Notes: a model not told the origin generated them from the sequence alone. A stretch of DNA of 12,227 nucleotides from a virus (IMGVR_UViG_3300045971_000195:64001-76227), one strand, 5' to 3'. Positions 644-12,226 are shown, numbered from the stretch's first letter. Numbers and translations: made by a program.

Positions 644-1058
644 AAAAGCAATTTGGTTTACATTTGGAATTATTTTTCTAGGTGTTGCATACTTAGGTAC
701 ATTTGTTCCAGGACTTCCTTGGAGTACTCCTGCACTGTTAGCAACATGGTGCTTCAGTAAGAGTAGCAAGAAGTTCCACGACTATATGCTTAACCATAAA
801 CTGTTCGGTCCGTTTATTAAGAACTGGGGAGAAGGTCGTGTATTTCCCACACTAGCAAAGTGGTTTATGTTTCTAAGTATGGACTTTAGTCTTATACTAA
901 TTTATTGGAGAACAGGTAACTGGAAACTATGTTTAGGTTTAAGTATTTTCTTTGCGTTAACTTTACTATGGGCAAGCAGATTGCCGGGCAACAAAGAAGA
1001 AGCCGAACGCAGAAAAGCGTCCGGCGAAAAGTTAGGTTGGTTTAATAACTACTTTTAA
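630..1058 (+). CDS. ybaN: YbaN/DUF454 family inner-membrane protein
   Basis: N-terminal TM helix, then GxFVPGLPWSTPxLLxxWCFSKSS, HDYMLNHKLFGPFIKNW and two more hydrophobic helices. Perfect SD AAGGAGG at 617-623; overlaps hemA by 14 nt. Confidence 0.85.
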   Translation: MDKIKKAIWFTFGIIFLGVAYLGTFVPGLPWSTPALLATWCFSKSSKKFHDYMLNHKLFGPFIKNWGEGRVFPTLAKWFMFLSMDFSLILIYWRTGNWKLCLGLSIFFALTLLWASRLPGNKEEAERRKASGEKLGWFNNYF

Positions 1059-1594
1059 ACTGACTCTCGCAGTTCACGCAGCTTGCGATAAACGTTTTGC
1101 ACACCAATTGCTTGACGTTTAGCGTCGGCTAGCGCATTGTGCAATTCACCTTTTGGCATGTCTGGAGTAAACCCAATATCAAACAAAGTTCTTGTATCAC
1201 GGATTCTCCAAAACTCACCCCACGGTGCAGTCTTGTTAAGCTGACGATATAGATCATCTAGCATGCCAATATCGAAGATTGAGCCATGTGACCAAAATGC
1301 TGAACATCCCCACGCAAACTTATGAAATGCATCTACTCCGTCCTCGACACTAATGCGTCCATCGGGTGAAAATGCTTCTTCCATAATTTTAGGATCTTGC
1401 TTGGACCACCAGTCGAGTGTGTTGTTGTCAACTTCTCGACCTAGTGTATCTTGTCCGTCGATATCCATCCTAAAATAGAGATCATCAAAAATCTCATCAG
1501 TCTGCGGATCAAATGTAACAGCACCCAATGTTAGGATCACTGATCGCGGAGTTACCGCCATCGTTTCCAAATCGACCATTAGGTGCTTTGCCAT
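1055..1594 (-). CDS. DEDDh 3'-5' exonuclease (phage DUF5051 / RNase AS / exonuclease VIII-like), 179 aa
   Basis: HLMVDLETM (ExoI), WSHGSIFDIGML (ExoII), RDTRTL and HNALADA (ExoIII). Start moved from the track's 1705 to ATG 1594, 1 nt after the rIIB stop, with AAGGGA upstream. Confidence 0.85.
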   Translation of the reverse strand: MAKHLMVDLETMAVTPRSVILTLGAVTFDPQTDEIFDDLYFRMDIDGQDTLGREVDNNTLDWWSKQDPKIMEEAFSPDGRISVEDGVDAFHKFAWGCSAFWSHGSIFDIGMLDDLYRQLNKTAPWGEFWRIRDTRTLFDIGFTPDMPKGELHNALADAKRQAIGVQNVYRKLRELRESV

Positions 1595-1595
1595 T

Positions 1596-2591
1596 TTAGA
1601 ATCCCTTAGGAGTAGGCCAACTTGTGCCGCTATTCCAACCAGCTGGGGTATATTGTGCCTGCGAAGCAGCCTTTGCAGCACGAGCCTTTCGCTTACGGAT
1701 AGCATCCTTGGTCATGGACAACGGATTACCCCAATGATCGTATTCTTGAGGAATACTTGTATCAATAGTTTGCCCCGAACGAGTGTACTGCACAGGTTCG
1801 TCGGCAGCAGTCGGAAATGGCCAAGCACTTTGCGGAGTCAATCCGTTTCCGTTACTTTGCACAGATTCTGTAAACGCCTTTTCGGGCGCACGTACTGTTT
1901 CTGAGTCCAACTCGCCGATAACTTCATAACGGCATGCACGACCCTTTGCATCGTTGTAATCACTTGGAATGGACACAACGTCACGCGGGTTAATTTTAAC
2001 AATCACAATACGATCGCCACCGAAGCTATTCAAGTAGCTTTGTGAGCAGAAGTGCAGACCTGCGGAGCAAGTACGATCTTTATCGTCATCAACACCGTTA
2101 CGTTCCATCTCAACAACCTTACCAACGGTGTTATCCATTGTACCCGAATGCACGTCGAAATAGTTTTGGCGTACTTTCTTGTAAGCAAGGAAGTGTCCGT
2201 CTGGAGTAATAGGCATACTGCCCTTTTCCAAGAAATTATACAGTTCGTCCACAGACCGCTTTGATGGGTTTGACATCAAGTTAGTCATGAAGTTTACCAT
2301 TGGCTCAATTGGAAAGCCTTCTTGCAACATAGTGATCATCTTAGTAGCAAGGTATCCGTTGAACGGAGCGCCCTTCCAGAACAGTTGTTCACCTTCAATA
2401 GTTACATTGCCAGCACCGTACTGGAGTACAACCTTCTTGGGTTCGATGAAGTCCTTCACTGCGTCCCAATCGCCCGCTTTAATAGCGGTTAGCACCTTGT
2501 CATAGGTGATATGTGTTTTGGAAATAGTGTGTGACTTATTTCCGATTACGACAACAATGTTGTTGCCTTGGATAAGATATGGATATGCCAT
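1596..2591 (-). CDS. rIIB: RIIB-like protein with a C-terminal low-complexity extension
   Basis: NPSKRSVDELYNFL, ITPDGHFLAYKKV, CSAGLHFCSQSY and VKINPRDVVSIPSDYNDAKGRACRYEV match the conserved T4 RIIB core; lies directly downstream of rIIA. Confidence 0.92.
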   Translation of the reverse strand: MAYPYLIQGNNIVVVIGNKSHTISKTHITYDKVLTAIKAGDWDAVKDFIEPKKVVLQYGAGNVTIEGEQLFWKGAPFNGYLATKMITMLQEGFPIEPMVNFMTNLMSNPSKRSVDELYNFLEKGSMPITPDGHFLAYKKVRQNYFDVHSGTMDNTVGKVVEMERNGVDDDKDRTCSAGLHFCSQSYLNSFGGDRIVIVKINPRDVVSIPSDYNDAKGRACRYEVIGELDSETVRAPEKAFTESVQSNGNGLTPQSAWPFPTAADEPVQYTRSGQTIDTSIPQEYDHWGNPLSMTKDAIRKRKARAAKAASQAQYTPAGWNSGTSWPTPKGF

Positions 2592-2628
2592 GATTAAATT
2601 GCCTTTCAGTTAAAAGTTATATATGTAT

Positions 2629-2657
2629 ATTATATACGAATATTTATTGCTTGTCTA
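2629..2657 (-). promoter_or_regulatory. sigma70-type promoter for rIIB (TAGACA-17-TATAAT); the -35 lies within the 3' end of rIIA
   Basis: Minus strand reads TAGACA agcaataaatattcgta TATAAT. Confidence 0.65.
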
Positions 2658-4833
2658 CTACAGAATCAACCATATTGATGTAATCTGCAAGGATGTCTGC
2701 ATCCACTCGATATGAAGTCAAGCAGTTTAGCAGTGGATAACGCTTGTTTATAGCGTGGAGTTCAGCTTGATATTTTGCTACCAGTACGTCCGGGCTGAAT
2801 GCAGTAGTTGGAGCAAACAACTTGAACAGATGCTCCACGTTATACATACTACCGTTAAACTTGGTAACTTTACCAAACGTTTCAACTACCGTTTTATATG
2901 GGCTAGTTGCAGTAATCTTCGAAAGCACCTGAACGGGCAGTTCAAACACAGTTGCATGGTTCAGCTTTGTCTTTACTACGCTCATCATAAACTTAGAGAT
3001 ATCTTTGGTCTTCAATGTTTCCGCAATATGCTCTTCAAAGTTCTTCCAGTTCGGACGCTTCTTGATGTCATCAATATCTGCTTTTCGTACACCGTAGATT
3101 TCACCATTAAACAGGCCAGGCAGGCTCTTAACATCCTCGTACATTTGCTTACCCGAGGTATAGCCTTTAGTACTCAGCATCGAGAATCCACTTAGCGGAA
3201 CATAATAAAACGTAGCAGTCTTGTCGAAAGCATCAGCCTTGCCTGCATCGCGCCAAACCATATCGTCGTCTTGCTGACTATACCGGCGACCACTGTTACC
3301 ACGCTTTTGCAGTGACAGGATAGTTACATTCTTACCAACACCTGCAACCCGATCCTTTTGCTTCAGCGTAGAAGCATTGAAGATCAACTTTTCCGGAGGG
3401 CTTTGAATTGCCAGGAAGAACGCTTTAATATTCATGTTCTTCGTCTTGTCAGCCTTTTCCAGAACATACACATTACGGTGATACACATCCATTGGAGTTT
3501 CACGATAGTGATGTTTTACACGTTCCAATGCACCAGTCTTCAAGTCATTAATCACAAAGTGGTTGTCGAGTGATACACCGAATGTCCGAGATTGCCATGT
3601 AATGTAGTTGCCGTTAGCATCCTTTGCATGCCCTGGAGCATACTGAGTCTCGCCCTTCAATGTTTGCATTGCTGAGTATCCGCGACCTTTGCCTACCGCT
3701 TTAATTACAATGTTATAATCCTTTGCAAGGTCTGCTTCCTTAAACTGCCATTGGCGCAGACGATGGTGATTTACACTGTCCCAAGTTGATAGCTTTGTAT
3801 CGACTGCATACTTGTAAACAGCAGCATTCCATAGTGGATGGTCTTTCTTCTTAAACAGAAAGACTGCACGTTCCCACAAATTTGTGATTGCATCTGCTTC
3901 CTTAGCCAACACAATTGTCAGCGCCGCATTCAATGCTTCCAGCTTAACGCGAATAGCGTCGATAGTTTGCGGAATGTATGATAGCCCTTCACGTGAAGCT
4001 TGGAAGTCCAATTCACCGATGCCAAAGTGCATCTCTAGATTACAGTTCAACAAACTTGCTACGCCACCCAATGCAGCATTAGATGCAGCAGGCACATTAA
4101 TTGGATAAGCAATATTGCCCATCACTGCCGTGCTTGACATACGGCCACCACCGCGCAACGTATGCACACCAGGAACAATATCCTTGCTTTCGTATTCCAG
4201 ATTATAGAATTCAAATCCGTGAGCGCCGAGCACCTTTGGGCGCAGTGCAAAGTGGGTATACACTGTGCGAGCTTCGTCGGTAAAGCGACTATAATCGTAG
4301 CGATCGTTTACGCTAAATTTAACTTCAACACCATTTTCTTCGTCGGTGTCATAATCGGTCATTAATGCAATCGACGGTACACCAGTATCGTTAATGAACG
4401 CAGTGTAGATTCGCTTGGAACCGTCCTTAATTGCAGTAACCGTAAAATTGTCAGTGTACGCAAACGGAGATTTAGAACCAAGCCCTAGCGCGCCGATGAA
4501 CTCGTTAGATGCAGTTTTTGTTGATTCAAAGTATGTGGTGTAGATTTGGGTAACTTGATCATGCGACAGACCAGTACCGAAGTCACGGATAGAAAAGTGC
4601 GGTTCCAGTGAGTTTGGAAGATGTACTTCAAACGGCACATTCTTCTTACCTGCGGCAGCATGCGAGTCCACAGCATTACAACTCAGTTCACGAATGATAG
4701 CACGTACTTTATTTGCATACAAGCCCGAGGACAGGATAGAGAAAGCTTTTGCACTATTGCGAATACGGAATTCGCCAATTTGGCCTACGTTACTCAAAAC
4801 AGCTTCGTTTTGGGGAGTAGAATTAAGAATCAT
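2644..4833 (-). CDS. rIIA: RIIA-like protein with an N-terminal GHKL (HSP90-like) ATPase domain
   Basis: AFSILSSGLYANKVRAIIRELSCNAVDSH, IRDFGTGL, GALGLGSKS and ELDFQASREGLSY; 729 aa; upstream of rIIB. Confidence 0.92.
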   Translation of the reverse strand: MILNSTPQNEAVLSNVGQIGEFRIRNSAKAFSILSSGLYANKVRAIIRELSCNAVDSHAAAGKKNVPFEVHLPNSLEPHFSIRDFGTGLSHDQVTQIYTTYFESTKTASNEFIGALGLGSKSPFAYTDNFTVTAIKDGSKRIYTAFINDTGVPSIALMTDYDTDEENGVEVKFSVNDRYDYSRFTDEARTVYTHFALRPKVLGAHGFEFYNLEYESKDIVPGVHTLRGGGRMSSTAVMGNIAYPINVPAASNAALGGVASLLNCNLEMHFGIGELDFQASREGLSYIPQTIDAIRVKLEALNAALTIVLAKEADAITNLWERAVFLFKKKDHPLWNAAVYKYAVDTKLSTWDSVNHHRLRQWQFKEADLAKDYNIVIKAVGKGRGYSAMQTLKGETQYAPGHAKDANGNYITWQSRTFGVSLDNHFVINDLKTGALERVKHHYRETPMDVYHRNVYVLEKADKTKNMNIKAFFLAIQSPPEKLIFNASTLKQKDRVAGVGKNVTILSLQKRGNSGRRYSQQDDDMVWRDAGKADAFDKTATFYYVPLSGFSMLSTKGYTSGKQMYEDVKSLPGLFNGEIYGVRKADIDDIKKRPNWKNFEEHIAETLKTKDISKFMMSVVKTKLNHATVFELPVQVLSKITATSPYKTVVETFGKVTKFNGSMYNVEHLFKLFAPTTAFSPDVLVAKYQAELHAINKRYPLLNCLTSYRVDADILADYINMVDSVVDKQ

Positions 4834-4868
4834 TTATTACCTTTCAGTGTGTTAGTGTCTATATGTTA

Positions 4869-4897
4869 ATTATACACAGGTTTTACCTGCTTGTCAA
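4869..4897 (-). promoter_or_regulatory. Perfect sigma70 consensus promoter for rIIA, with inverted repeat CAGGT-AAA-ACCTG in the spacer
   Basis: Minus strand reads TTGACA agcaggtaaaacctgtg TATAAT (17-bp spacer). Confidence 0.9.
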
Positions 4898-5343
4898 CCT
4901 GCTTTTCGCCAATCTTCATTTAAAATTGTTTTATCTGCATTGCACATTAAGCACAGTGATTGAACATTTTCCTCAGAATCATCTCCGCCGTCTGCACGGC
5001 GAATAATGTGATCCCCGATCATTCGATTACGGCACAGTCGATTAAACAGTTCGGGACTTGTTTCTTCTAACGTTGGATACAGTGTCCGAACTTGCTCACT
5101 TACATCATTGTTGCACTTGACACACACGTACTTCCTGTGAAAGGTGTGTGGACGGTTAAGTTTTCCTAGCCCGTTATACTCAACCTGCCCTAACTGATGC
5201 TTTCTGCACAATGAGTTCGACCCTGGCCCCTCGTATAAACTAAGGGGCGCGCCGCAACCGTCCAACGAACAGACTAATTGGTTTTTAATCTGTTGCTTGA
5301 GGATTGCCGGCGACTTCTTTTGGTCGTCGATTGCGAATCTCAC
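4894..5343 (-). CDS. HNH endonuclease with an extra N-terminal Cys/His (putative zinc) module, about 149 aa
   Basis: CxxC ... GDHIIRRADGGDDSEENVQSLCLMCNADK (HNH core) plus upstream CX4C...CxxH. Probable start is GTG 5343: AAGGA 6 nt upstream and a GTGA overlap with the upstream stop. The track used GTG 5370. Confidence 0.8.
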   Translation of the reverse strand: MRFAIDDQKKSPAILKQQIKNQLVCSLDGCGAPLSLYEGPGSNSLCRKHQLGQVEYNGLGKLNRPHTFHRKYVCVKCNNDVSEQVRTLYPTLEETSPELFNRLCRNRMIGDHIIRRADGGDDSEENVQSLCLMCNADKTILNEDWRKAG

Positions 5344-6494
5344 ATCAAGTCCTTTGCAGGAACTGGCCACAACGGATTTCCAGTTGGCACAACTCCGCTA
5401 AAGTTTTTGGCAATTTGCTTTGTCAAGAACGTCAACCCCATTCTGTATTCAGGGTAAGAAATTCCGCGCAGTGTTCCGTCAAAGCTTCGGTTTGTATCAA
5501 GCCACCATTGTTGATAGCTTGTTTTTGCTTTTGCAGCAAGCACAATGCTGTTGAAGTCACCGTTAAATGCAGTGCGCAAACTCCTTGCAATTCCGCGAAT
5601 ATATGCATCATCAACTACAATTCCTTCGTTCTGACACATTTTAAAATATTCGTACAGCATCCAACATTCTTTTGGTTGAACAGGTCGACCGCTTTGACAT
5701 ATTGCTACAAAGTATTTGCAGAAGTGTTGTGTGATGCTCAGATCGTAATTCTTGACGTCCATCAGTTCGTCAAGTCTTGTTAGTGCGCCTGGCTGATCAC
5801 CATCACCGAATTTTGTATGTGTGGCAAACATCTTTGCTGATTCGAGCGCCTTTTGCTTTGCTTCGACTAGCACCCAACTTGCATTGGTACTGTTGTCAGT
5901 TCTAACACCGAATACCATTTGATGGAAGTAATCAATTAAATCCAACGGCAATTTTGCATTGCCGTTCAATTCCATGAAGTTCTCACGCATTTCGCTCTTT
6001 TGGCTGCTTTCGTAAATTACGATAGGAACCTCGCACTTTGCAATATCAAGTCCTAAAGTTTGGGCAGCAATCATATACAGAACGATTGCAGTATGTTGTC
6101 CATCCCAGCATACATATTTTCCGGGGGCAAGCGGGTCTTGATACACTGAGATAGGCATGACGCGGATCTGTTTAAACTTATCCATAATCCGGGTTGCGTG
6201 AATCAAGTTCAACATGCGTTGGAGTGTGATGTCGATCACAATCTTATCAAGGGTAGTTGTTCCACTTTGACAAAATTTGAAATCTACCCAATCAGACAAT
6301 TTTGGGTTTCTAACTTTGAATTCTTCAATTGAAGCTTCGACCAATTGCTGGCGGAATGAGTCATTGCTAACAGTATGTGCTAACCGCGATGCTAAATCAA
6401 CGTACTGGCTTTTACTTTTGTAAAATTGTTGATTTACTGTATCGGCATAAACAAGAACAGTTGCAGTTTGCATAGGAGCGGCCATAAGTTGCAT
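5340..6494 (-). CDS. ParB/Srx-fold (DndB/DGQHR-like) domain protein, 384 aa
   Basis: LQR ... YVCWDGQHT ... VPIVIY ... FMELNGNAK is the motif order of ParB-like / DGQHR N-terminal domains. C-terminal half not recognised; exact start Met uncertain. Confidence 0.65.
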   Translation of the reverse strand: MQLMAAPMQTATVLVYADTVNQQFYKSKSQYVDLASRLAHTVSNDSFRQQLVEASIEEFKVRNPKLSDWVDFKFCQSGTTTLDKIVIDITLQRMLNLIHATRIMDKFKQIRVMPISVYQDPLAPGKYVCWDGQHTAIVLYMIAAQTLGLDIAKCEVPIVIYESSQKSEMRENFMELNGNAKLPLDLIDYFHQMVFGVRTDNSTNASWVLVEAKQKALESAKMFATHTKFGDGDQPGALTRLDELMDVKNYDLSITQHFCKYFVAICQSGRPVQPKECWMLYEYFKMCQNEGIVVDDAYIRGIARSLRTAFNGDFNSIVLAAKAKTSYQQWWLDTNRSFDGTLRGISYPEYRMGLTFLTKQIAKNFSGVVPTGNPLWPVPAKDLM

Positions 6495-6527
6495 AAAATG
6501 TTATCCCAAGTTGTTTAATATGTATTA

Positions 6528-6556
6528 ATTATAGCAGGTTTTACCAGTACTGTCAA
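6528..6556 (-). promoter_or_regulatory. Perfect sigma70 consensus promoter for the ParB-like/HNH pair
   Basis: Minus strand reads TTGACA gtactggtaaaacctgc TATAAT (17-bp spacer). Confidence 0.9.
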
Positions 6557-6581
6557 ATAAAATAGGCTCCGGAGAGCCTAT
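6555..6581 (-). terminator. Intrinsic terminator after the AAA ATPase gene
   Basis: Minus strand ATAGGCTC-TCCG-GAGCCTAT-TTTATTT: perfect 8-bp stem with a c(UCCG)g UNCG tetraloop and a U-rich tail. Confidence 0.85.
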
Positions 6582-6599
6582 CATTTGTCCAAAAACTAC

Positions 6600-7682
6600 T
6601 TAAAACGCTTTCCAGTAGTCGGAATACTTTTCTTCAACCTTTGTCAATGTCAACTTTTGGCCATCGCTATTCTCAAAGATGTAACGAGTTCCGCCGTTAT
6701 CGATAACCTTTAGGTCCTTTTGACCAAAGTATACAGAAGTCCAAGACCATTCGGAATCTTCTGGATCATCCTTGTTGTCTTTTTCCTTGTAGGAAATTTC
6801 GATATTTTCTCTGGACAATGGGTTTCCTTGCCAGTCGTCATCACCGATATCTTCCTTAGAAAGATCAATTCCGGCAACAGATAGCAGCGCCTTGAACTTT
6901 AGTGCACCACTAAATTCTGGCTTTGCATTTAGCATAGTTAGCGACTCTTGAGGAGATTCTTTGAATCTGTTCATTTCTTCAACCAATGCTTTTAACATGT
7001 CGAAGTTAAACTGATCAAACAATTGAGCAATCTTACAAATTTGATCAATGTGTTTCTTTTGTTCCAAATTGTCATCGCAGTATTCACGGATAAATGCTTC
7101 GTCCAATCCGCGGAAGTCTAACATGTAAAAGATTCGACCAGGCCGATTTCGCATGTGAGCATCCACACGCCACTTATCGTTACAAGTAAGAATAAACAGC
7201 TTCTTGGAAGGAAACACCCCGTCTAGGAGTGTTAGGATAGATTCCTGTTCTTCCTTATCATACACTTTTTCGAACTCGTCAAACAGTATGATACAAGGTT
7301 GCTCGATCATTTGGATGAACGAGTTAAACTTATCACCGCACCATGGAGCATTAATCACAATAGTAGGGATGCCTACCTTTGCAGCCTCAACCGCAATGTT
7401 CTTTGCCAACAAGGTCTTACCCGAACCTTTTTCGCCGTTCAACATAACACCTGTTGATGGGCCACGCAACTCAAAGGTCTTTAGAATACGACCGGTGTGC
7501 CGTGTTGTATCACCGTAAAGTTTACCAGAGATGTTGAATGATTCAATAGTCTCGAGGTACAGTTGTCCAGACATTTCGTCCTTCTTAATAACATAGTTAC
7601 CTGCGGGCAACTTCTCGTGCAAGTCCATTGCATCTTTAGTAGTTACTTTGAAGGTGTTACCGTTTCTCAAAAAATATGACAT
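6600..7682 (-). CDS. AAA+ ATPase (phage type), 360 aa
   Basis: Walker A GEKGSGKT, Walker B ILFDEFEK, sensor LFILTCN and arginine finger RPGR. Confidence 0.9.
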   Translation of the reverse strand: MSYFLRNGNTFKVTTKDAMDLHEKLPAGNYVIKKDEMSGQLYLETIESFNISGKLYGDTTRHTGRILKTFELRGPSTGVMLNGEKGSGKTLLAKNIAVEAAKVGIPTIVINAPWCGDKFNSFIQMIEQPCIILFDEFEKVYDKEEQESILTLLDGVFPSKKLFILTCNDKWRVDAHMRNRPGRIFYMLDFRGLDEAFIREYCDDNLEQKKHIDQICKIAQLFDQFNFDMLKALVEEMNRFKESPQESLTMLNAKPEFSGALKFKALLSVAGIDLSKEDIGDDDWQGNPLSRENIEISYKEKDNKDDPEDSEWSWTSVYFGQKDLKVIDNGGTRYIFENSDGQKLTLTKVEEKYSDYWKAF

Positions 7683-7746: not shown

Positions 7747-7904
7747 TACTGTGATGTCTACTATTTTGCCAAATATATTTCTTTAAGTGAGGCAACACAC
7801 ATACTTAAATGTCTTATTGTATTATACTGATGTACATCCTGTACTTTACTTGTAGTGAAGATTTGGATACTGTGCGTAAGTATTATAAACATCCGGAGAC
7901 CCCA

Positions 7905-8576
7905 ATGTTATCACAAAAAACAATTGCCTATGTAAGTCCGAACAAGGATACTACTATAGAAGTAGTATTCGGTATAAAAGTTTCGAACCATGATTCGATT
8001 CAAGAAATTTTACCGTTATTGAGTACGTTAAAGTTTAACACAGATTTAATTCTGATTGACATTGAGAAATTTTCCGAGTTTAGTGGATCGGATGTTTATG
8101 ATATCGTGAACTCTTTGGCAACATTAATAAACTGCACTGTATGCAGAATCGAACCAGGTAAACCAGTTCGAAGACGAGCATTTATTGCAGTTGCAGTTGA
8201 TACTGACACAGATGTAACTATAATGAAGCAAGCCCTTAGTTCCAATATCGTTGGGCTGTATCCAAGGGGGTTAGGATTTACACTTGATGAAAAGAAATGT
8301 GCAATTACTAAGTTGCTCTCCGGTGAATCTCATATACCCGAGAAAATTTCCGAATTAATTAAACCTAAAAAGAAAACAAAGCAAAACAAAGGTATCGAGT
8401 TAACTATCAGACAGGAACAAATTCTCACTCTAATTAAGGAACGTGGATCAAGCAATAAGATGATTGCTCGAACTCTTGATATTTCCGAAAGTACTGTTAA
8501 ACTCCATGTATCGTTGATCTTTAAAAAGTTCGGTGTTAAAAACAGAACACAACTTGCAGTGTTTTCAAAAATCTAA
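7905..8576 (+). CDS. NarL/FixJ-type response regulator (degenerate receiver + LuxR HTH), about 223 aa
   Basis: C-terminal LTIRQEQILTLI...SNKMIARTLDISESTVKLHVSLIFKKFGVKNRTQL is a classic LuxR HTH. DLILIDI and KQALSSNIVGLYPR resemble receiver beta3 and alpha4-beta5. ATG 7905 has GGAG 6 nt upstream and gives typical NarL length; the track's 7809 start lacks an SD. Confidence 0.85.
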   Translation: MLSQKTIAYVSPNKDTTIEVVFGIKVSNHDSIQEILPLLSTLKFNTDLILIDIEKFSEFSGSDVYDIVNSLATLINCTVCRIEPGKPVRRRAFIAVAVDTDTDVTIMKQALSSNIVGLYPRGLGFTLDEKKCAITKLLSGESHIPEKISELIKPKKKTKQNKGIELTIRQEQILTLIKERGSSNKMIARTLDISESTVKLHVSLIFKKFGVKNRTQLAVFSKI

Positions 8577-8585
8577 CGGAAGTAC

Positions 8586-8612
8586 AGCCTCTGCAATAGT
8601 GTAGGTTTTTTT
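8586..8612 (+). terminator. Possible weak intrinsic terminator after the LuxR-type gene
   Basis: Imperfect hairpin agcctctgc-aata-gtgtaggtt (G-U pairs, one mismatch) running into T7. Confidence 0.45.
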
Positions 8613-8651
8613 ACCTCTTAAAGTTTTAAGTAATAGTGAGAGGAAGGAAAT

Positions 8652-8723
8652 ATGCATACATCAAATTCGGTATGTATAACAGCAACAACTGTTGCAATAC
8701 AACCGAACCTTTCACAACTTTAA
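8652..8723 (+). CDS. Putative 23-aa small ORF (MHTSNSVCITATTVAIQPNLSQL), absent from the ORF track
   Basis: ATG 8652 follows purine-rich GAGAGGAAGGAAAT; TAA at 8721-8723 lies 4 nt before the next gene's SD. Confidence 0.35.
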   Translation: MHTSNSVCITATTVAIQPNLSQL

Positions 8724-8739
8724 TCTCAGGAGATATAAA

Positions 8740-9513
8740 ATGGCAGATATTGTAACCGGCACTGTAACAGGCCAAGTAGACAACACAGCGTTATTACAAG
8801 ATAACGCAGACATTCGTCGTGAAAACGCACAGTATAGTTCAGACATTCGTCGTGAAACCGCTAAAGAAGCAAACGACTTGCAATTAGAAAATATGAAGGG
8901 ATTTGACCGTGTTAATGCCGACGTATTGAGATCAGGATGGGCAAACACAGATGCAACTAAAGACGCACGTTTTGAAATTGCAGATCGCATCGCGCAAACA
9001 TCCGCTATGGACTCAGCTCAAGGAACAGCTTTCTACATTTCAGCTCAAAAGAACGCAACAGATGCTGCAACAGCTCTTGCCGGCCTTACAGCACTGCAAG
9101 CCGCTAACACAGCAGCGATCCAACGCGAAGTAGCATCTAATGGCGATCGTGTCGCAGCAGCAAATGCGTTAGAAGCAGCTAAGAACGCAGCAGCAACAAT
9201 TGTAGGTCAATTACAACTTACTGGTGTTGTTCGTGATGAAGGCGATAGAACTCGTGCTTTGATTAACGATCTAAAATATCACGATCTAAGTCGTGCACTT
9301 GTAGAACGCAATGCAGAGTTGGTAGAAGAACGCGAAGGTCGTCGTCACTGGAGAGACTCTGCTGGCCAAAATCAATTTGGTGCACAGTTTGCTCAACTAC
9401 AAAGTATGATGCAAAATTTCAACAGTCAACTATCTGACACCCGTCAGGGCATGGTTAACCTAGGAACAATGACCGGTACTACTCAGTCCGCATCATCTAC
9501 AAACGTCAAGTAA
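8740..9513 (+). CDS. Ala/Gln/Asn-rich helical protein of unknown function, 257 aa, with 11-residue periodicity and a conserved-looking C-terminal QxxxNxGxM motif
   Basis: SD AGGAG at 8728-8732 and ATG 8740 (the track's TTG 8692 is unlikely). DIRRE repeated 11 aa apart; EGDRTRALIN segment; no TM helix or enzyme motif. Confidence 0.85.
   Translation: MADIVTGTVTGQVDNTALLQDNADIRRENAQYSSDIRRETAKEANDLQLENMKGFDRVNADVLRSGWANTDATKDARFEIADRIAQTSAMDSAQGTAFYISAQKNATDAATALAGLTALQAANTAAIQREVASNGDRVAAANALEAAKNAAATIVGQLQLTGVVRDEGDRTRALINDLKYHDLSRALVERNAELVEEREGRRHWRDSAGQNQFGAQFAQLQSMMQNFNSQLSDTRQGMVNLGTMTGTTQSASSTNVK
8807..8857 (+). repeat. 18-bp direct repeat (cagacattcgtcgtgaaa) at a 33-bp period
   Basis: Identical copies at 8807-8824 and 8840-8857, both covering the DIRRE codons. 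Confidence 0.95.
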
Positions 9514-9538
9514 TTAGTTCGCTTTGTGAGTAACAACT

Positions 9539-9571
9539 AAGGGCGGGTTCCAAAAGAGCTCGCCCTTTTTT
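9539..9571 (+). terminator. Strong intrinsic terminator between the 257-aa gene and the collagen-like gene
   Basis: GGGCGGGTTC-CAAAA-GAGCTCGCCC followed by T6 (10-bp stem including G-U pairs). Confidence 0.9.
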
Positions 9572-9584
9572 ACAAGGAATTAAA

Positions 9585-10103
9585 ATGAATGCGTTAGAAT
9601 CGAGACTGATACAGTTAAACGATGCGTTGCTGCGGATATCAAGGAGGGAGCCAATTGAGCTTGAATTGATTCAACAAGCAACACAGGCATTATTTGGAAC
9701 TGAGCAGCGTTTCCCAGCATTTGATACTGGACCTGGTAACGATACTGTAGTAATAAACGAAACACAACCAGGACCACCCGGGCCTCCAGGCCCAGTCGGG
9801 CCTCCAGGCCCAGTCGGTGTTTGTACTTTCACTTATCAATCAATTTTAGTAACCCAGGATTATATAGCCGTTGTAAGTGATTACTATATCGGAGTGAACA
9901 GCACCTCGACCGTTACGATAATTTTGCCTCCAAATTGTGAAAGCGGCAGCAAAATAGTAGTAAAAGCTGAAATGGGATTTCCGGATATAATAATTTCAAC
10001 AAGCGACGGAAGCACAATTGATGGAGCAGCCAACTCTATTATAGAACTACCTTGGCAATCAAAGCAACTATTTTGCCAAGGTGGCAACTGGTTTATAATT
10101 TAA
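9585..10103 (+). CDS. Short collagen-like protein with a C-terminal beta-rich domain, 172 aa
   Basis: GPP GPP GPV GPP GPV G triplets, then a C-terminal domain ending STIDG...ELPWQSKQLFCQGGNWFII, a pattern recalled from phage fibre/adhesin-associated domains. SD AAGGAA at 9574-9579. Confidence 0.8.
   Translation: MNALESRLIQLNDALLRISRREPIELELIQQATQALFGTEQRFPAFDTGPGNDTVVINETQPGPPGPPGPVGPPGPVGVCTFTYQSILVTQDYIAVVSDYYIGVNSTSTVTIILPPNCESGSKIVVKAEMGFPDIIISTSDGSTIDGAANSIIELPWQSKQLFCQGGNWFII
9780..9815 (+). repeat. Perfect tandem 18-bp duplication (gggcctccaggcccagtc x2) encoding GPPGPV x2
   Basis: Identical adjacent copies at 9780-9797 and 9798-9815. Confidence 0.95.
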
Positions 10104-10119
10104 ATTTTAGGAGTTAATC

Positions 10120-10320
10120 ATGTACTACGATCATATGCATCCATATTCACGTTATCCATATCCGTATTATCCAACACGTTCGTACTCGTACCCGTACGGT
10201 GGGTATTATCCACCGTACGATTTTGGCGGAGACATTGCGTTACATCAGTCTATTATCAATTCTGGATATATGAATAGTGTTTACCAAAATGCGCTCGTCA
10301 ACAACTTATATCGTTATTAA
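10120..10320 (+). CDS. Tyr/Pro-rich small protein, 66 aa
   Basis: SD AGGAG upstream; 17 Tyr in 66 aa (13 in the first 33); C-terminal QSIINSGYMNSVYQNALVNNL motif. Confidence 0.8.
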   Translation: MYYDHMHPYSRYPYPYYPTRSYSYPYGGYYPPYDFGGDIALHQSIINSGYMNSVYQNALVNNLYRY

Positions 10321-10329
10321 AGGAATATC

Positions 10330-10767
10330 ATGTACAAAAAAACAACTACTACAGTTGAGGAATACTTCGATGCTGCATCTCAAATTGCACCGCAAATTGC
10401 ACCTCAAGTTATGCCACCGTTTCCCTTCCCAGAAAAACCGCTGTCGGGGCCGTATGCACACCCTTTCTCCCCGCTCGCACTTCATCCAAGTGCCCGCCCA
10501 ATAGTTCCGTTAGCGATTGATCCTAAAGCATTTAAACTGATTCTTCGGTTAGATGTTCCACTAATGCTTAAATTGCTAGAATATGCTAAAGAAAGCGCAG
10601 TGTCAGATACCGCTCTTCATCAAATAGTAGAGAAGATGATCGATCTATGTGATTATGGTAAAGTGCTTGAGATGGAAGATTACAGTGCTATTATAGAGGC
10701 AACGGCACCCGTTGTTCCGCCTATTGAGCCGCCTGTCGAACCACCTGTTGTTCCTCCAACAGTGTAA
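10330..10767 (+). CDS. Hypothetical protein, 145 aa: helical core flanked by Pro-rich arms
   Basis: SD AAGGAA. Core LDVPLMLKLLEYAKE...LHQIVEKMI...LEMEDY, recalled as a recurring aquatic-phage hypothetical. QIAP repeats at the N-terminus and PVVPPIEPPVEPPVVPP tail. Confidence 0.8.
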   Translation: MYKKTTTTVEEYFDAASQIAPQIAPQVMPPFPFPEKPLSGPYAHPFSPLALHPSARPIVPLAIDPKAFKLILRLDVPLMLKLLEYAKESAVSDTALHQIVEKMIDLCDYGKVLEMEDYSAIIEATAPVVPPIEPPVEPPVVPPTV

Positions 10768-10798
10768 TCATGCGTTATCCGGCATATTATTTAATACT

Positions 10799-11248
10799 AT
10801 GGAAAATTCGATAGATCAGGCATTGTTGGAAATTTTGCGGATGGCCCGAGAGCTGACAATTAATGAATACAAAGATAGACGAGCTGAACTCCATAATCGA
10901 TGGCTTGCGGAGTCTGAACGGATGTGGCGAATGTCAAGGGCACGATTAGTGTACCCAACAATTCCGCCACATCCAACAGAGACTGAAATATTGGCCCGAG
11001 CAAAAATATTAATGAATTTTGTAGCAGTATCGGTGCCTGATACAGAACTAGTTCAGGTAGCGGAGCCGATAGTTGATGTTTTACCGACTATCGTGACGCC
11101 CCTTATGGTAGAAGTAGAACCGGAGTCACCACCAATAGTTACATCCGATCTTCCTTTGAAGACTACCCCTCCGGAGTCACTACCGCCAGGCGGAATTTTA
11201 CCGAGTGTGCGTAGACGGCTAGAAGAGATGAAAGCAGGATGGAAATAA
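10799..11248 (+). CDS. Hypothetical protein, about 149 aa, with a Pro/Glu/Val-rich C-terminal half
   Basis: First ATG after the upstream stop (no clear SD). LLEILRMAREL...EY...W...YP...PTETEILARAKILMNFV resembles a small hypothetical recalled from large phages. Confidence 0.7.
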   Translation: MENSIDQALLEILRMARELTINEYKDRRAELHNRWLAESERMWRMSRARLVYPTIPPHPTETEILARAKILMNFVAVSVPDTELVQVAEPIVDVLPTIVTPLMVEVEPESPPIVTSDLPLKTTPPESLPPGGILPSVRRRLEEMKAGWK

Positions 11249-11253
11249 TCTGC

Positions 11254-11715
11254 TTAGGTTAGCAGCTTTCTTACTTCGCCGACTAAATCATAGTAAGTAT
11301 TACACAATGGGATTTTAAATCGATCACAGATAATCTCAACGTTTCCTTTTCGCCAGAAGCCATCTGGACAACATACTATGACGGTTGAATCACTTGCTGC
11401 TGCAAGTCCTAATTCCATCAGTGTAATAGGAGACATTGTATTTGGGTCAAAATAGAATACAATAGCACTGGAGCAGGCCATTGCATCTAATTCCCAATTT
11501 ACTTGCTCTTTAAACTCCGGATTGTGAATCGATTGTACCCACGTTGGGTCCCAATTATCACGACGCGGGTTTAAGAGAACTCCGTCGTAATCAACAAGAT
11601 CGGCAACTAGGCGAGTTTGCCAATCTTCCGCGGCGCCCATCTCAATGGATCCACCTAGGAAGATTGACTTCAAGCCACCGAACGTTATATCAGCGGGCGA
11701 CTTGATCTCACGCAT
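11254..11715 (-). CDS. Nucleoside 2-deoxyribosyltransferase-like protein (Nuc_deoxyri_tr2 type), about 153 aa
   Basis: SIFLGGSI, WQ, LNPRR, QVNWELDAM, VFYFDPNTMSPITLMELG and VCCPDGFWRKGNV. ATG 11715 overlaps the upstream stop by 8 nt (ATGCGTGA); the track used TTG 11739. Confidence 0.85.
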   Translation of the reverse strand: MREIKSPADITFGGLKSIFLGGSIEMGAAEDWQTRLVADLVDYDGVLLNPRRDNWDPTWVQSIHNPEFKEQVNWELDAMACSSAIVFYFDPNTMSPITLMELGLAAASDSTVIVCCPDGFWRKGNVEIICDRFKIPLCNTYYDLVGEVRKLLT

Positions 11716-12226
11716 TGCTGTTAGCCCGAACTTCGTCAAAGGTTTGTGTAAACTTTACTTCACCATCTTCAAAGTATGTTTCCATTGCACTTACCCATTG
11801 GAAACCTTTATCAGTCCATCTGTGTGACGGAACAGTTGAAGTCTCATATTCACCACCGCAAGTGTAAAGTGATACACGACCCTTCTTAGATGCTTTTCCT
11901 GGGTCAGTTGCCGGGTCCTTGAACACATCGCGCCATACCAAAGCAGAATCCATCAGCGTTGATTCTTGTTGCTCTGTTGTGTATCGTTCACGTACACCAA
12001 CTGACGAGCACTTCATAGCAAACTTCAGTGTGTCACGGTCGCACTGTTGGAGTAATCCCCCACCCATTCCAAATGCTATGTTATCGGCAGACCAGCCAGC
12101 GACATCAACCACACAACGAAGTATGCTAGACAGAGACACAGAATTAATACCATCGCCCCAAATAACACGAACATTGTTGAGGACTTTATACCCCTTTTCA
12201 TTAGTAGTAAATCCAAACTTATCAGC
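11708..12226 (-). CDS. Nicotinamide phosphoribosyltransferase family (NAMPT/NadV or Namat-like), C-terminal part; 5' end beyond the window
   Basis: Frame is open to the window edge: FGFTTNEKGYKVLNNVRVIWGDGIN ... GWSADNIAFGMGGGLLQ ... RDTLKFAMKCS ... KDPATDPGKASKKGR ... FDEVRAN. Confidence 0.9.
   Translation of the reverse strand, partial: ADKFGFTTNEKGYKVLNNVRVIWGDGINSVSLSSILRCVVDVAGWSADNIAFGMGGGLLQQCDRDTLKFAMKCSSVGVRERYTTEQQESTLMDSALVWRDVFKDPATDPGKASKKGRVSLYTCGGEYETSTVPSHRWTDKGFQWVSAMETYFEDGEVKFTQTFDEVRANSNA

Follow-up and report, generated by a model that had tools for sequence, protein, structure and literature searches.

The island and its genes

We analysed a stretch of 12,227 nucleotides (IMGVR_UViG_3300045971_000195:64001-76227; the window), which forms the last 12.2 kb of a 76-kb viral contig from IMG/VR, and focused on an island of six genes at positions 7905-11248. 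These genes encode a GerE/LuxR-type regulator and the proteins p257, col172, Y66, P145 and P148. A preliminary description of the window had singled out the island as a co-directional plus-strand block flanked by two minus-strand blocks. Both the open reading frame (ORF) map and the sequence agree with this, with genes on the minus strand at 1055-7682 and 11254-12226. The strand switch lies 6 nt past the P148 gene and the contig ends 1 kb further on. The island comprises the following features:

7877-7886, plus strand: promoter-like TAAGTATTAT motif, 19 nt before the regulator start codon (sequence reading)
7905-8576, plus strand: LuxR/NarL-type regulator, 223 aa (Pfam GerE; ATG at 7905 with a GGAG ribosome-binding site upstream)
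8588-8612, plus strand: weak hairpin and T7 run, likely the regulator-gene terminator (sequence reading)
8627-8632, plus strand: TAAGTA motif before p257, a -10-like element or regulator half-site (conserved in relatives)
8633-8739, plus strand: structured 5' leader of the p257 mRNA (RNAfold -26.3 kcal/mol, z -4.6)
8740-9513, plus strand: p257, 257 aa (strong ribosome-binding site)
9409-9507, plus strand: p257 C-terminal motif, SQ[LI]x4Q[GS][MI]xN[FL]GxM..., common to Y66
9539-9571, plus strand: strong intrinsic terminator of p257 (GC-rich stem, T6 run)
9585-10103, plus strand: col172, 172 aa (helices 3-37, TGPGNDTV(I/V)IN motif, G-X-Y triplets, knob 82-172)
10120-10320, plus strand: Y66, Tyr/Pro-rich, 66 aa (hidden Markov model (HMM) of a conserved Tyr/Pro/Arg-rich family)
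10210-10308, plus strand: Y66 copy of the p257-type motif (aligned in register)
10330-10767, plus strand: P145, Pro-rich with a short helical core (no family match)
10799-11248, plus strand: P148, 149 aa (start set by homologue alignments)

The types of protein initially reported for the island were recovered in our analysis. Five consecutive G-X-Y triplets make col172 a mini-collagen, Y66 contains 26% Tyr and 11% Pro, and the two Pro-rich proteins P145 and P148 contain 17% and 11% Pro, respectively. As previously stated, the proteins encoded downstream of the regulator carry no enzyme motif (zero enzyme families matched in a Pfam search) and the island proteins no transmembrane helix (top 19-residue Kyte-Doolittle mean 1.39).

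Conservation of the cassette in giant phages

A first scan of IMG/VR with p257 returned nine loci at 36-46% identity, all nine with the collagen gene directly 3' of p257. A profile scan of IMG/VR yielded 57 loci which, together with the window and two contigs from a protein collection, were merged at a p257 identity of at least 90% into 43 dereplicated loci. Synteny across IMG/VR had been set beforehand as a test that could refute the proposed system, and the genes were found to be co-located in other genomes: p257 is followed by the collagen/knob gene in 38 of the 43 loci, including complete genomes of 258 kb and 400 kb. Identical gene order was observed on contigs of 697 kb and 352 kb. Further recurring members are a second protein with a col172-type knob (about 22 of 43 loci), a papain-family peptidase gene (about 20; the peptidase C1 of locus L051 matches PF00112 at 4.4e-15 with 56.8 bits, cut-off 20.7), a Tyr-rich small protein (about 20), a LuxR-type gene upstream of p257 (about 19) and a P148-type protein (12, each time inside the cassette). 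The window island represents a short form, lacking both the peptidase gene and the second knob protein. The complete relatives with the cassette encode a T4-type Gp23 capsid protein (PF07068, E 2.8e-150 and 1.1e-98). The island is thus a real gene cassette, conserved in giant T4-like aquatic phages. That it merely reflects unrelated neighbours brought onto one strand by chance is very improbable: P145 has one homologue and the AAA ATPase gene next door is only occasionally adjacent, but the core order is kept in 43 diverged loci at 35-50% protein identity, together with common motifs and regulatory signals.

The cassette and the p257 family are apparently undescribed, while the kinds of parts (phage fibres, collagen-like stalks, gp9/gp10-type knobs, LuxR-family regulators) are familiar. 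No description of the cassette was found in the literature searched on collagen-like proteins in jumbo and huge phages.

The head of the cassette varies. In a psbA/psbD-bearing subclade, a small basic protein of ~100 aa with a conserved KKPRGRGKPKYPN stretch (PRGRGKP), which we take to be AT-hook-like, stands in LuxR's place. Because of this substitution, the cassette may generally be headed by a DNA-binding gene, whichever family supplies it. In LuxR-less loci, p257 is accompanied by yet another conserved small protein (58-70 aa), the motif of which resembles LADNMAAAAxxFxAHGYDxFI. The two small proteins were located as follows:

L051:7271-7624, with homologues in L037, L040, L048, L060 and L073: basic LuxR-replacing protein (position upstream of p257)
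L018:9569-9760 and L024:9403-9615, with relatives; upstream of p257 in L021 and L026: LADNMAAAA-type small protein (no family match)

p257, a predicted rod

p257 opens with hendecad repeats, continues through a middle rich in Ala and closes with an invariant C-terminal third and an end motif. AlphaFold2, supplied with 69 sequences, predicted that residues 16-237 form a single helix without a break (mean pLDDT 81) and that the tail, 239-257, is disordered; at 1.5 Å per residue, the predicted helix corresponds to a rod of ~33 nm. An 11-mer periodicity had been proposed for this protein. It holds for the profile of the 69-sequence family, where the best period is 3.66 (11/3) with a power of 75 compared with a shuffle 95th percentile of 49.6, but not for the single p257 sequence, the Fourier signal of which does not rise above shuffles. 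Heptad power in the family profile is 9.2 and thus at background level. Eight hendecads run in constant phase over residues 24-112. The number of repeats in the N-terminal half (DIRRE-type hendecads) varies within the family, and 21 of the 24 invariant columns fall within residues 171-256.

No relative of p257 was found in Pfam (E<=1), PHROG or PDB-profile searches, and searching the ESM Atlas returned only viral clusters without a name. Ten distant relatives likewise had no Pfam match, and homologues are labelled hypothetical in all sources apart from one DivIVA label. Judged by these comparisons, p257 is a new protein family. The family is large: the candidates that were scored fall into more than 1250 clusters at 90% identity, and an exhaustive HMMER search, clustered at 50% identity, gave 199, including 103 at E<=1e-10. 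Contigs bearing family members reach 697 kb. The island, p257, col172 and a divergent p257 had zero matches in 50,697 GenBank phage records (blastn, tblastn), profile searches with p257 in PA5oct and Atu_ph07 gave no match, and p257 was not found among 185,579 species of bacteria and archaea, each represented by one genome. A resemblance to R-body proteins was considered; RebB (PF11747) had no match in genomes G000-G004 at E<=10, but control genomes were without a match too. Fibritin_C was not matched by p257 in Pfam.

Six distant relatives (P0222, P0226, P0233, P0243, P0249 and P0262) keep an MAD start and the C-terminal motif. They carry a Gly-zipper-like hydrophobic stretch of 25-35 residues right after the MAD start, and the few short contigs available for them show no collagen neighbour.

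The helical periodicity of p257 also bears on a different function. As an amphipathic 11-mer helix, p257 could act at the host membrane or another lipid surface, where it might, for instance, remodel membranes, time lysis or mediate exclusion, with the other genes as accessories. Apolipoprotein-type helices, too, are typified by an 11/3 periodicity, and a precomputed match to PF01442 (Apolipoprotein A1/A4/E) exists for several homologues. Since the distant relatives have a Gly-rich hydrophobic segment, this idea is kept alive. We nevertheless consider it rather improbable. The window p257 has neither a PF01442 match nor a hydrophobic segment (top 19-residue Kyte-Doolittle mean 1.19), and it is hydrophobic at only about 2-3 of every 11 positions, a narrow stripe that suits the core of a straight coiled coil better than a lipid-binding face. 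Further, a membrane function would leave the collagen/knob partner unexplained.

Expression signals and the regulator

The regulator gene of the window is preceded by GTGCGTAAGTATTAT, nearly the same as a sequence in the relative L019. In 9 of 14 relatives, TAAGTA lies no more than 200 nt before the LuxR gene, and the window is a further case once the start of its regulator is placed at 7905 (chance 0.08 per 260 nt). Upstream of p257, it is present in 17 of about 19 LuxR-bearing loci compared with 1 of about 24 LuxR-less loci, a difference confounded by shared ancestry. TAAGTA may therefore represent a cassette-specific promoter or operator served by the regulator. Its reverse complement, TACTTA, is similar to what we take to be the NarL half-site, TACYYMT. 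As a general phage promoter, TAAGTA was discarded, its genome-wide frequency being equal to chance. Between the regulator gene and p257, clear terminators were found in the relatives L012, L030 and L062 at the place matching the weak hairpin of the window.

A stem-loop begins 3-5 nt past TAAGTA in almost all loci, variable in sequence and length (z -2 to -6.5). The possible small ORF (sORF) previously marked at 8636-8755 is not upheld, as it sits within this structured leader, the stem of which is maintained by differing sequences in relatives. Located near the predicted 5' end of the p257 mRNA, the hairpin may have a stabilising effect. At the other end of the gene, the strong terminator of the preliminary description is borne out by its GC-rich stem and T6 run, and the whole intergenic stretch between p257 and col172 folds at -26.7 kcal/mol. 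A GC-rich hairpin 3' of the p257 stop codon was seen in nearly all of 39 loci examined, and 26 of the 39 passed a strict hairpin-plus-T-run rule. The downstream genes would probably be expressed less, by read-through of this terminator. Framed by a promoter-like motif, a structured leader and a strong terminator, p257 is marked as the presumed abundant component.

The gene heading the island had been described as a LuxR-type regulator, and this assignment is firm (Pfam GerE PF00196 at 4.6e-16, 58.6 bits compared with a cut-off of 23.5). Profile comparison of the regulator family with the PDB matched NarL (6.7e-17) and VpsT (9.6e-14) as well as VraR, DesR and GerE, and the alignment to VraR and DesR begins at approximately receiver strand beta4. 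Pfam Response_reg had no match to the window regulator. Among homologues, neither the acceptor Asp nor the acidic pair is kept, and the residue at the expected acceptor position varies (alignment A4). The autoinducer-binding domain PF03472 was not among the 11 Pfam families found at E<=1, and matches of the regulator profile to CviR, RhlR, LasR and SdiA are confined to the helix-turn-helix region. Neither a partner kinase nor a ligand motif was found for the regulator. Because a ligand domain is missing and the receiver is degenerate, the earlier notion of a signal-controlled module is unsupported. By its sequence, the protein is best called an atypical pseudo-receiver LuxR-family regulator with a receiver-like N-terminal half.

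Y66 and the shared C-terminal motif

Two island proteins had been reported to share a C-terminal motif. We identified them as p257 (E 2.9e-16 per genome) and Y66 (3.8e-13), the motifs of which align in register; none of the other island protein pairs shares a motif. An HMM of small Tyr/Pro/Arg-rich proteins matches both Y66 and the p257 C-terminus. In both families the motif takes the form S-Q-[LI]-x4-Q-[GS]-[MI]-x-N-[FY]-G-x-M-x2-V-x-Q, from which the window Y66 deviates at the first positions. When a 33-residue motif profile was searched against five genomes, two of them complete, its matches were confined to p257 and to the Tyr-rich protein of those genomes that have one (E 1e-13 to 1e-18). 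Being private to these two proteins, the motif is not a general targeting signal. The simplest reading of the shared motif is that p257 and Y66 co-assemble or compete at one site. In two loci without a collagen gene, the Tyr-rich protein does not carry the motif.

In locus L020, a by-eye reading of the p257-collagen intergenic stretch showed another small Tyr/Arg/Pro-rich ORF before the collagen gene. Because of this ORF, Tyr-rich partners may be commoner than the HMM count indicates.

The pairing of p257 and Y66 could also be read as part of an intracellular assembly, where p257 rods and the Tyr-rich protein form a filament network, scaffold or condensate with col172 as a connector, comparable to intermediate-filament rods embedded in small Tyr/Gly-rich matrix proteins. 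It is consistent with this that p257 has the signals of a very abundant product, that the end motif of the rod is common only to a Tyr/Arg/Pro-rich low-complexity protein, that the cassette is located at a distance from structural genes and comes with a regulator of its own, and that one source labels a p257 homologue as DivIVA-like. On the other hand, p257 showed no homology to known cytoskeletal families in the Pfam, PDB-profile and ESM Atlas searches, and the collagen-plus-knob build of col172 and the fibre-like knob paralogues described below are typical of virion appendages. Overall, we regard an intracellular assembly as unlikely, yet plausible enough to be weighed seriously.

col172, a collagen protein with a phage knob

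The N-terminal helical region of col172 is conserved (RLIELNxALLKL, alignment A2), as is the TGPGNDTV(I/V)IN motif that comes next; they are followed by the collagen stalk, which ranges from 5 to more than 25 G-X-Y triplets in homologues that carry PF01391. For col172 itself, the Pfam Collagen match (E 0.03) is below the cut-off, while the family profile matches collagen chains at 4e-5. The C-terminal domain of ~90 residues has many invariant positions and is common to paralogues. It was modeled by AlphaFold2 with pLDDT above 90. Structural matches of this knob were residues 78-175 of CBA120 TSP4 (Z 11.7, rmsd 2.0), an Acinetobacter phage (Solidus) tailspike (Z 11.6), a baseplate protein of Klebsiella phage KP1 (Z 11.0) and, for col172 residues 84-172, the Pa223 capsid-spike knob (Z 10.5, rmsd 2.5, identity 11%). 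Overall, the alignments covered 82-89 residues with rmsd values of 1.6-2.5. Foldseek matches included T4 gp10 and gp9 at E-values of 1e-5 to 1e-4. Pfam T4_gp9_10 had no match to col172, and the modeled knob belongs with the T4 gp9/gp10-like/TNF-like knobs at the fold level only.

More than 422 matches to the knob were obtained among predicted viral structures at E<=1e-3, with names such as Gp9/Gp10, tail fibre, minor tail, structural protein and collagen repeat. At the sequence level, the knob profile matches inside a 2236-aa structural protein of PA5oct verified by mass spectrometry and an Atu_ph07 protein encoded two genes from a tail fibre gene. Knob paralogues in relatives start with a tail-fibre-like N-terminal region. 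col172 is predicted to be a protein of the trimeric-fibre type. Mapping to known tail or baseplate parts had been named as an outcome that would speak against a novel system, and it applies to one part of the cassette, the col172 knob, which has the fold of T4 gp9/gp10, the TSP4 adaptor and the Pa223 spike. This fold points to ordinary virion appendages rather than to a new kind of structure. Further, the knob is well conserved between phages with psbA and phages with 5-aminolevulinate (ALA) synthase, which probably infect different hosts, and would therefore dock to a partner within the phage rather than serve as a host-receptor tip. A complex prediction for three copies of col172 and p257 residues 196-257 scored 0.00, a value that counts neither for nor against binding.

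The same knob fold matches a giant-virus protein named after the BclB C-terminal domain, which connects to the idea that, as in the spore coat and exosporium, finished virions are wrapped in a coat or an occlusion-like matrix of protein. The cast is indeed similar to that of these spore layers, with a regulator of the GerE type, a collagen-like protein with a knob, a Tyr-rich protein of small size and, in relatives, a cysteine peptidase. However, no sequence relation to coat proteins was found, with BclA being matched by the col172 family profile in the collagen repeat only (E 0.7), and we know of no precedent for occluded phages. The data do not separate such a coat from ordinary fibres, and we judge it to be quite improbable. 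Of the self-assembling module originally envisaged, the fibrous protein types (coiled-coil rod, collagen plus knob) are retained, while a coat or matrix around virions has no direct support.

In locus L021, two collagen-like proteins of 94 and 399 aa are encoded about 1.0-2.5 kb past the p257 start. They keep the N-terminal helix of the cassette (LIELNxVLTR), lack the knob as far as compared, and have no match to the collagen/knob HMM. This pair may reflect swapping of C-terminal domains on a constant N-terminal part.

P145 and P148

P148 combines a conserved 85-aa N-terminal domain with a variable acidic Pro-rich linker and a C-terminal LEEMKxxW(K/R) motif (alignment A5). The N-terminal domain also occurs in free-standing viral proteins of 90 aa (TM 0.8), and no PDB or Pfam relative of P148 was found. 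From its position and build, our guess is that P148 serves as a linker or assembly helper. P145, with a single homologue among the loci (in L003/L019, at the matching position), would be a peripheral component, possibly also a linker or assembly helper.

A possible virion-fibre module

With somewhat less than even confidence, we favour the interpretation that the cassette is an accessory, self-regulated virion-fibre module providing whiskers, hairs or capsid fibres. Virion appendages are favoured because of the collagen-plus-knob protein, the fibre-like paralogues, the T4-type background and the combination of one major with several minor subunits. From the observed gene content, conservation, folds, periodicity, shared motif and RNA and terminator signals, we infer its regulation, stoichiometry, binding partners and location on the virion as follows. 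A LuxR/NarL-type activator with a non-phosphorylatable pseudo-receiver would act on TAAGTA-type promoters of its own gene and of p257. The 5' hairpin and the strong 3' terminator on the p257 mRNA would result in a large excess of p257, with col172, Y66, P145 and P148 made in smaller amounts through terminator read-through. p257 would form a straight rod of ~33 nm with 11/3 periodicity, its invariant C-terminal third and end motif serving as the assembly end, at which Y66, carrying the same motif, would join or compete. The col172 trimer would contribute helices for attachment at its N-terminus, a short stalk of collagen and a docking knob of the gp9/gp10 type, with P148 and P145 acting as linkers or assembly helpers.

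Several points weigh against a role in virion fibres. The initial proposal that the module is separate from core virion genes was confirmed in complete genomes, where the cassette lies far from the major capsid gene, at about 65 kb in G001 and about 237 kb in G002. The neighbours of the cassette are metabolic and nucleotide genes, and a dedicated regulator is unusual for T4-type structural genes. The promoter-like motif is, as we understand the T4 motif, not of the T4 late type. p257 is unlike any known virion protein and was found in no cultured phage (50,697 GenBank phage records; profile searches in PA5oct and Atu_ph07), a very abundant rod protein would fit a matrix or scaffold as well, and the Gly-rich N-terminal segment of the distant p257 relatives hints at membrane contact. 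The virion location of the products is itself deduced rather than observed.

In a broader formulation to which we give low but not negligible credence, the cassette would specify a protein material that has no known counterpart in phages, made of hendecad rods, Tyr/Arg/Pro-rich proteins joined through the end motif and collagen/knob connectors, and deployed as an intracellular lattice or condensate or as an extra-virion matrix, instead of discrete fibres on the virion, under a dedicated regulator.

Giant aquatic phages carry many genes of unknown role, among which this cassette stands out as a widespread multi-gene set with a clear internal logic. Should it encode virion fibres, it would represent a new way for T4-like phages to decorate their particles, regulated apart from the late structural programme; if not, these phages would be building, inside the cell or around it, something fibrous that is as yet undescribed. 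Small and soluble-looking, the parts lend themselves to expression and structural studies, and research on protein materials may find the rod, the collagen-knob protein and the Tyr-rich peptide of interest.

Genomic surroundings

The contig was rated 21% complete by CheckV, which implies a genome of roughly 350 kb; the source is a T4-like freshwater phage of this size, seen as a fragment. Genes around the island encode the 3' end of ALA synthase, DUF454, a 3'-5' exoribonuclease, an rIIA-like HATPase protein (best cultured relative PA5oct rIIA, 32% identity), an HNH endonuclease, an AAA ATPase, a nicotinamide phosphoribosyltransferase and a protein similar to nucleoside deoxyribosyltransferases, a set typical of large T4-like aquatic phages. 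ALA-synthase-bearing contigs of a similar kind have been grouped with aquatic myophages (Wegner et al. 2024, PMC11480375). The AAA ATPase gene (6600-7682) was considered as a cassette member and rejected, as it adjoins the cassette in only 3 loci.

The HNH endonuclease gene (4894-5370, minus strand, Pfam 2.1e-8) is located between the rIIA-like gene (2644-4833) and a gene for a 384-aa protein (5340-6494), which it overlaps by 31 nt. The arrangement resembles the insertion of a homing endonuclease into the rII region. A 331-aa protein (1596-2591, minus strand) without a Pfam family shares 54-56% identity with rIIA-adjoining proteins in L031 and L034; its gene is possibly conserved in linkage with rIIA. 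Two short minus-strand ORFs (137 and 95 aa) some 5 kb ahead of the window (G000:C1:58083-59266) match the capsid profile of T4 Gp23 in different stretches, at positions 3-58 (E 2.3e-10) and 170-196 (E 1e-3). This could be a split, intron-interrupted or decayed capsid-like gene.

Comparison with known systems

With NarL/VraR-type and atypical VpsT/CsgD-type LuxR regulators, the window regulator shares the C-terminal GerE helix-turn-helix and an alignment reaching into the receiver fold. In contrast to the NarL/VraR type, its acceptor Asp and acidic pair are not conserved and Response_reg is not matched. The Bacillus exosporium and coat (BclA, Tyr-rich CotC-type proteins, GerE) offer an analogy in that the same types of parts recur, whereas homology is limited to the collagen repeat and the generic GerE domain, and the cassette belongs to lytic T4-like phages outside any spore context.

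T4 fibritin (wac), a long coiled-coil rod whose C-terminus carries a short conserved element, may be viewed as a functional analogue of p257 from another T4-type phage. p257 differs in having no sequence similarity to fibritin, a hendecad instead of a heptad repeat, signals of high abundance and its own regulator. In case of col172, T4 gp9/gp10 and the N-terminal adaptor (XD) domains of CBA120 TSP4 have the same small beta-sandwich fold as the knob and dock other fibres in their own phages. The col172 knob, by contrast, is C-terminal on a collagen stalk within a 172-aa protein, and its docking role would be a matter of analogy.

In the capsid spike gp52 of Pa223 (PDB 9ny6), which is located on the capsid three-fold axes, the N-terminal 41 residues serve for attachment and precede a stalk and a knob (bioRxiv 10.1101/2025.06.11.659172). 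Its stalk is a triple beta-helix, and no rod protein, Tyr-rich protein or regulator is encoded alongside, unlike in the cassette. Nevertheless, gp52, a homotrimer, and col172, as judged from its sequence and model, are built alike, with an attachment part of ~40 residues, a stalk and a C-terminal beta-sandwich knob.

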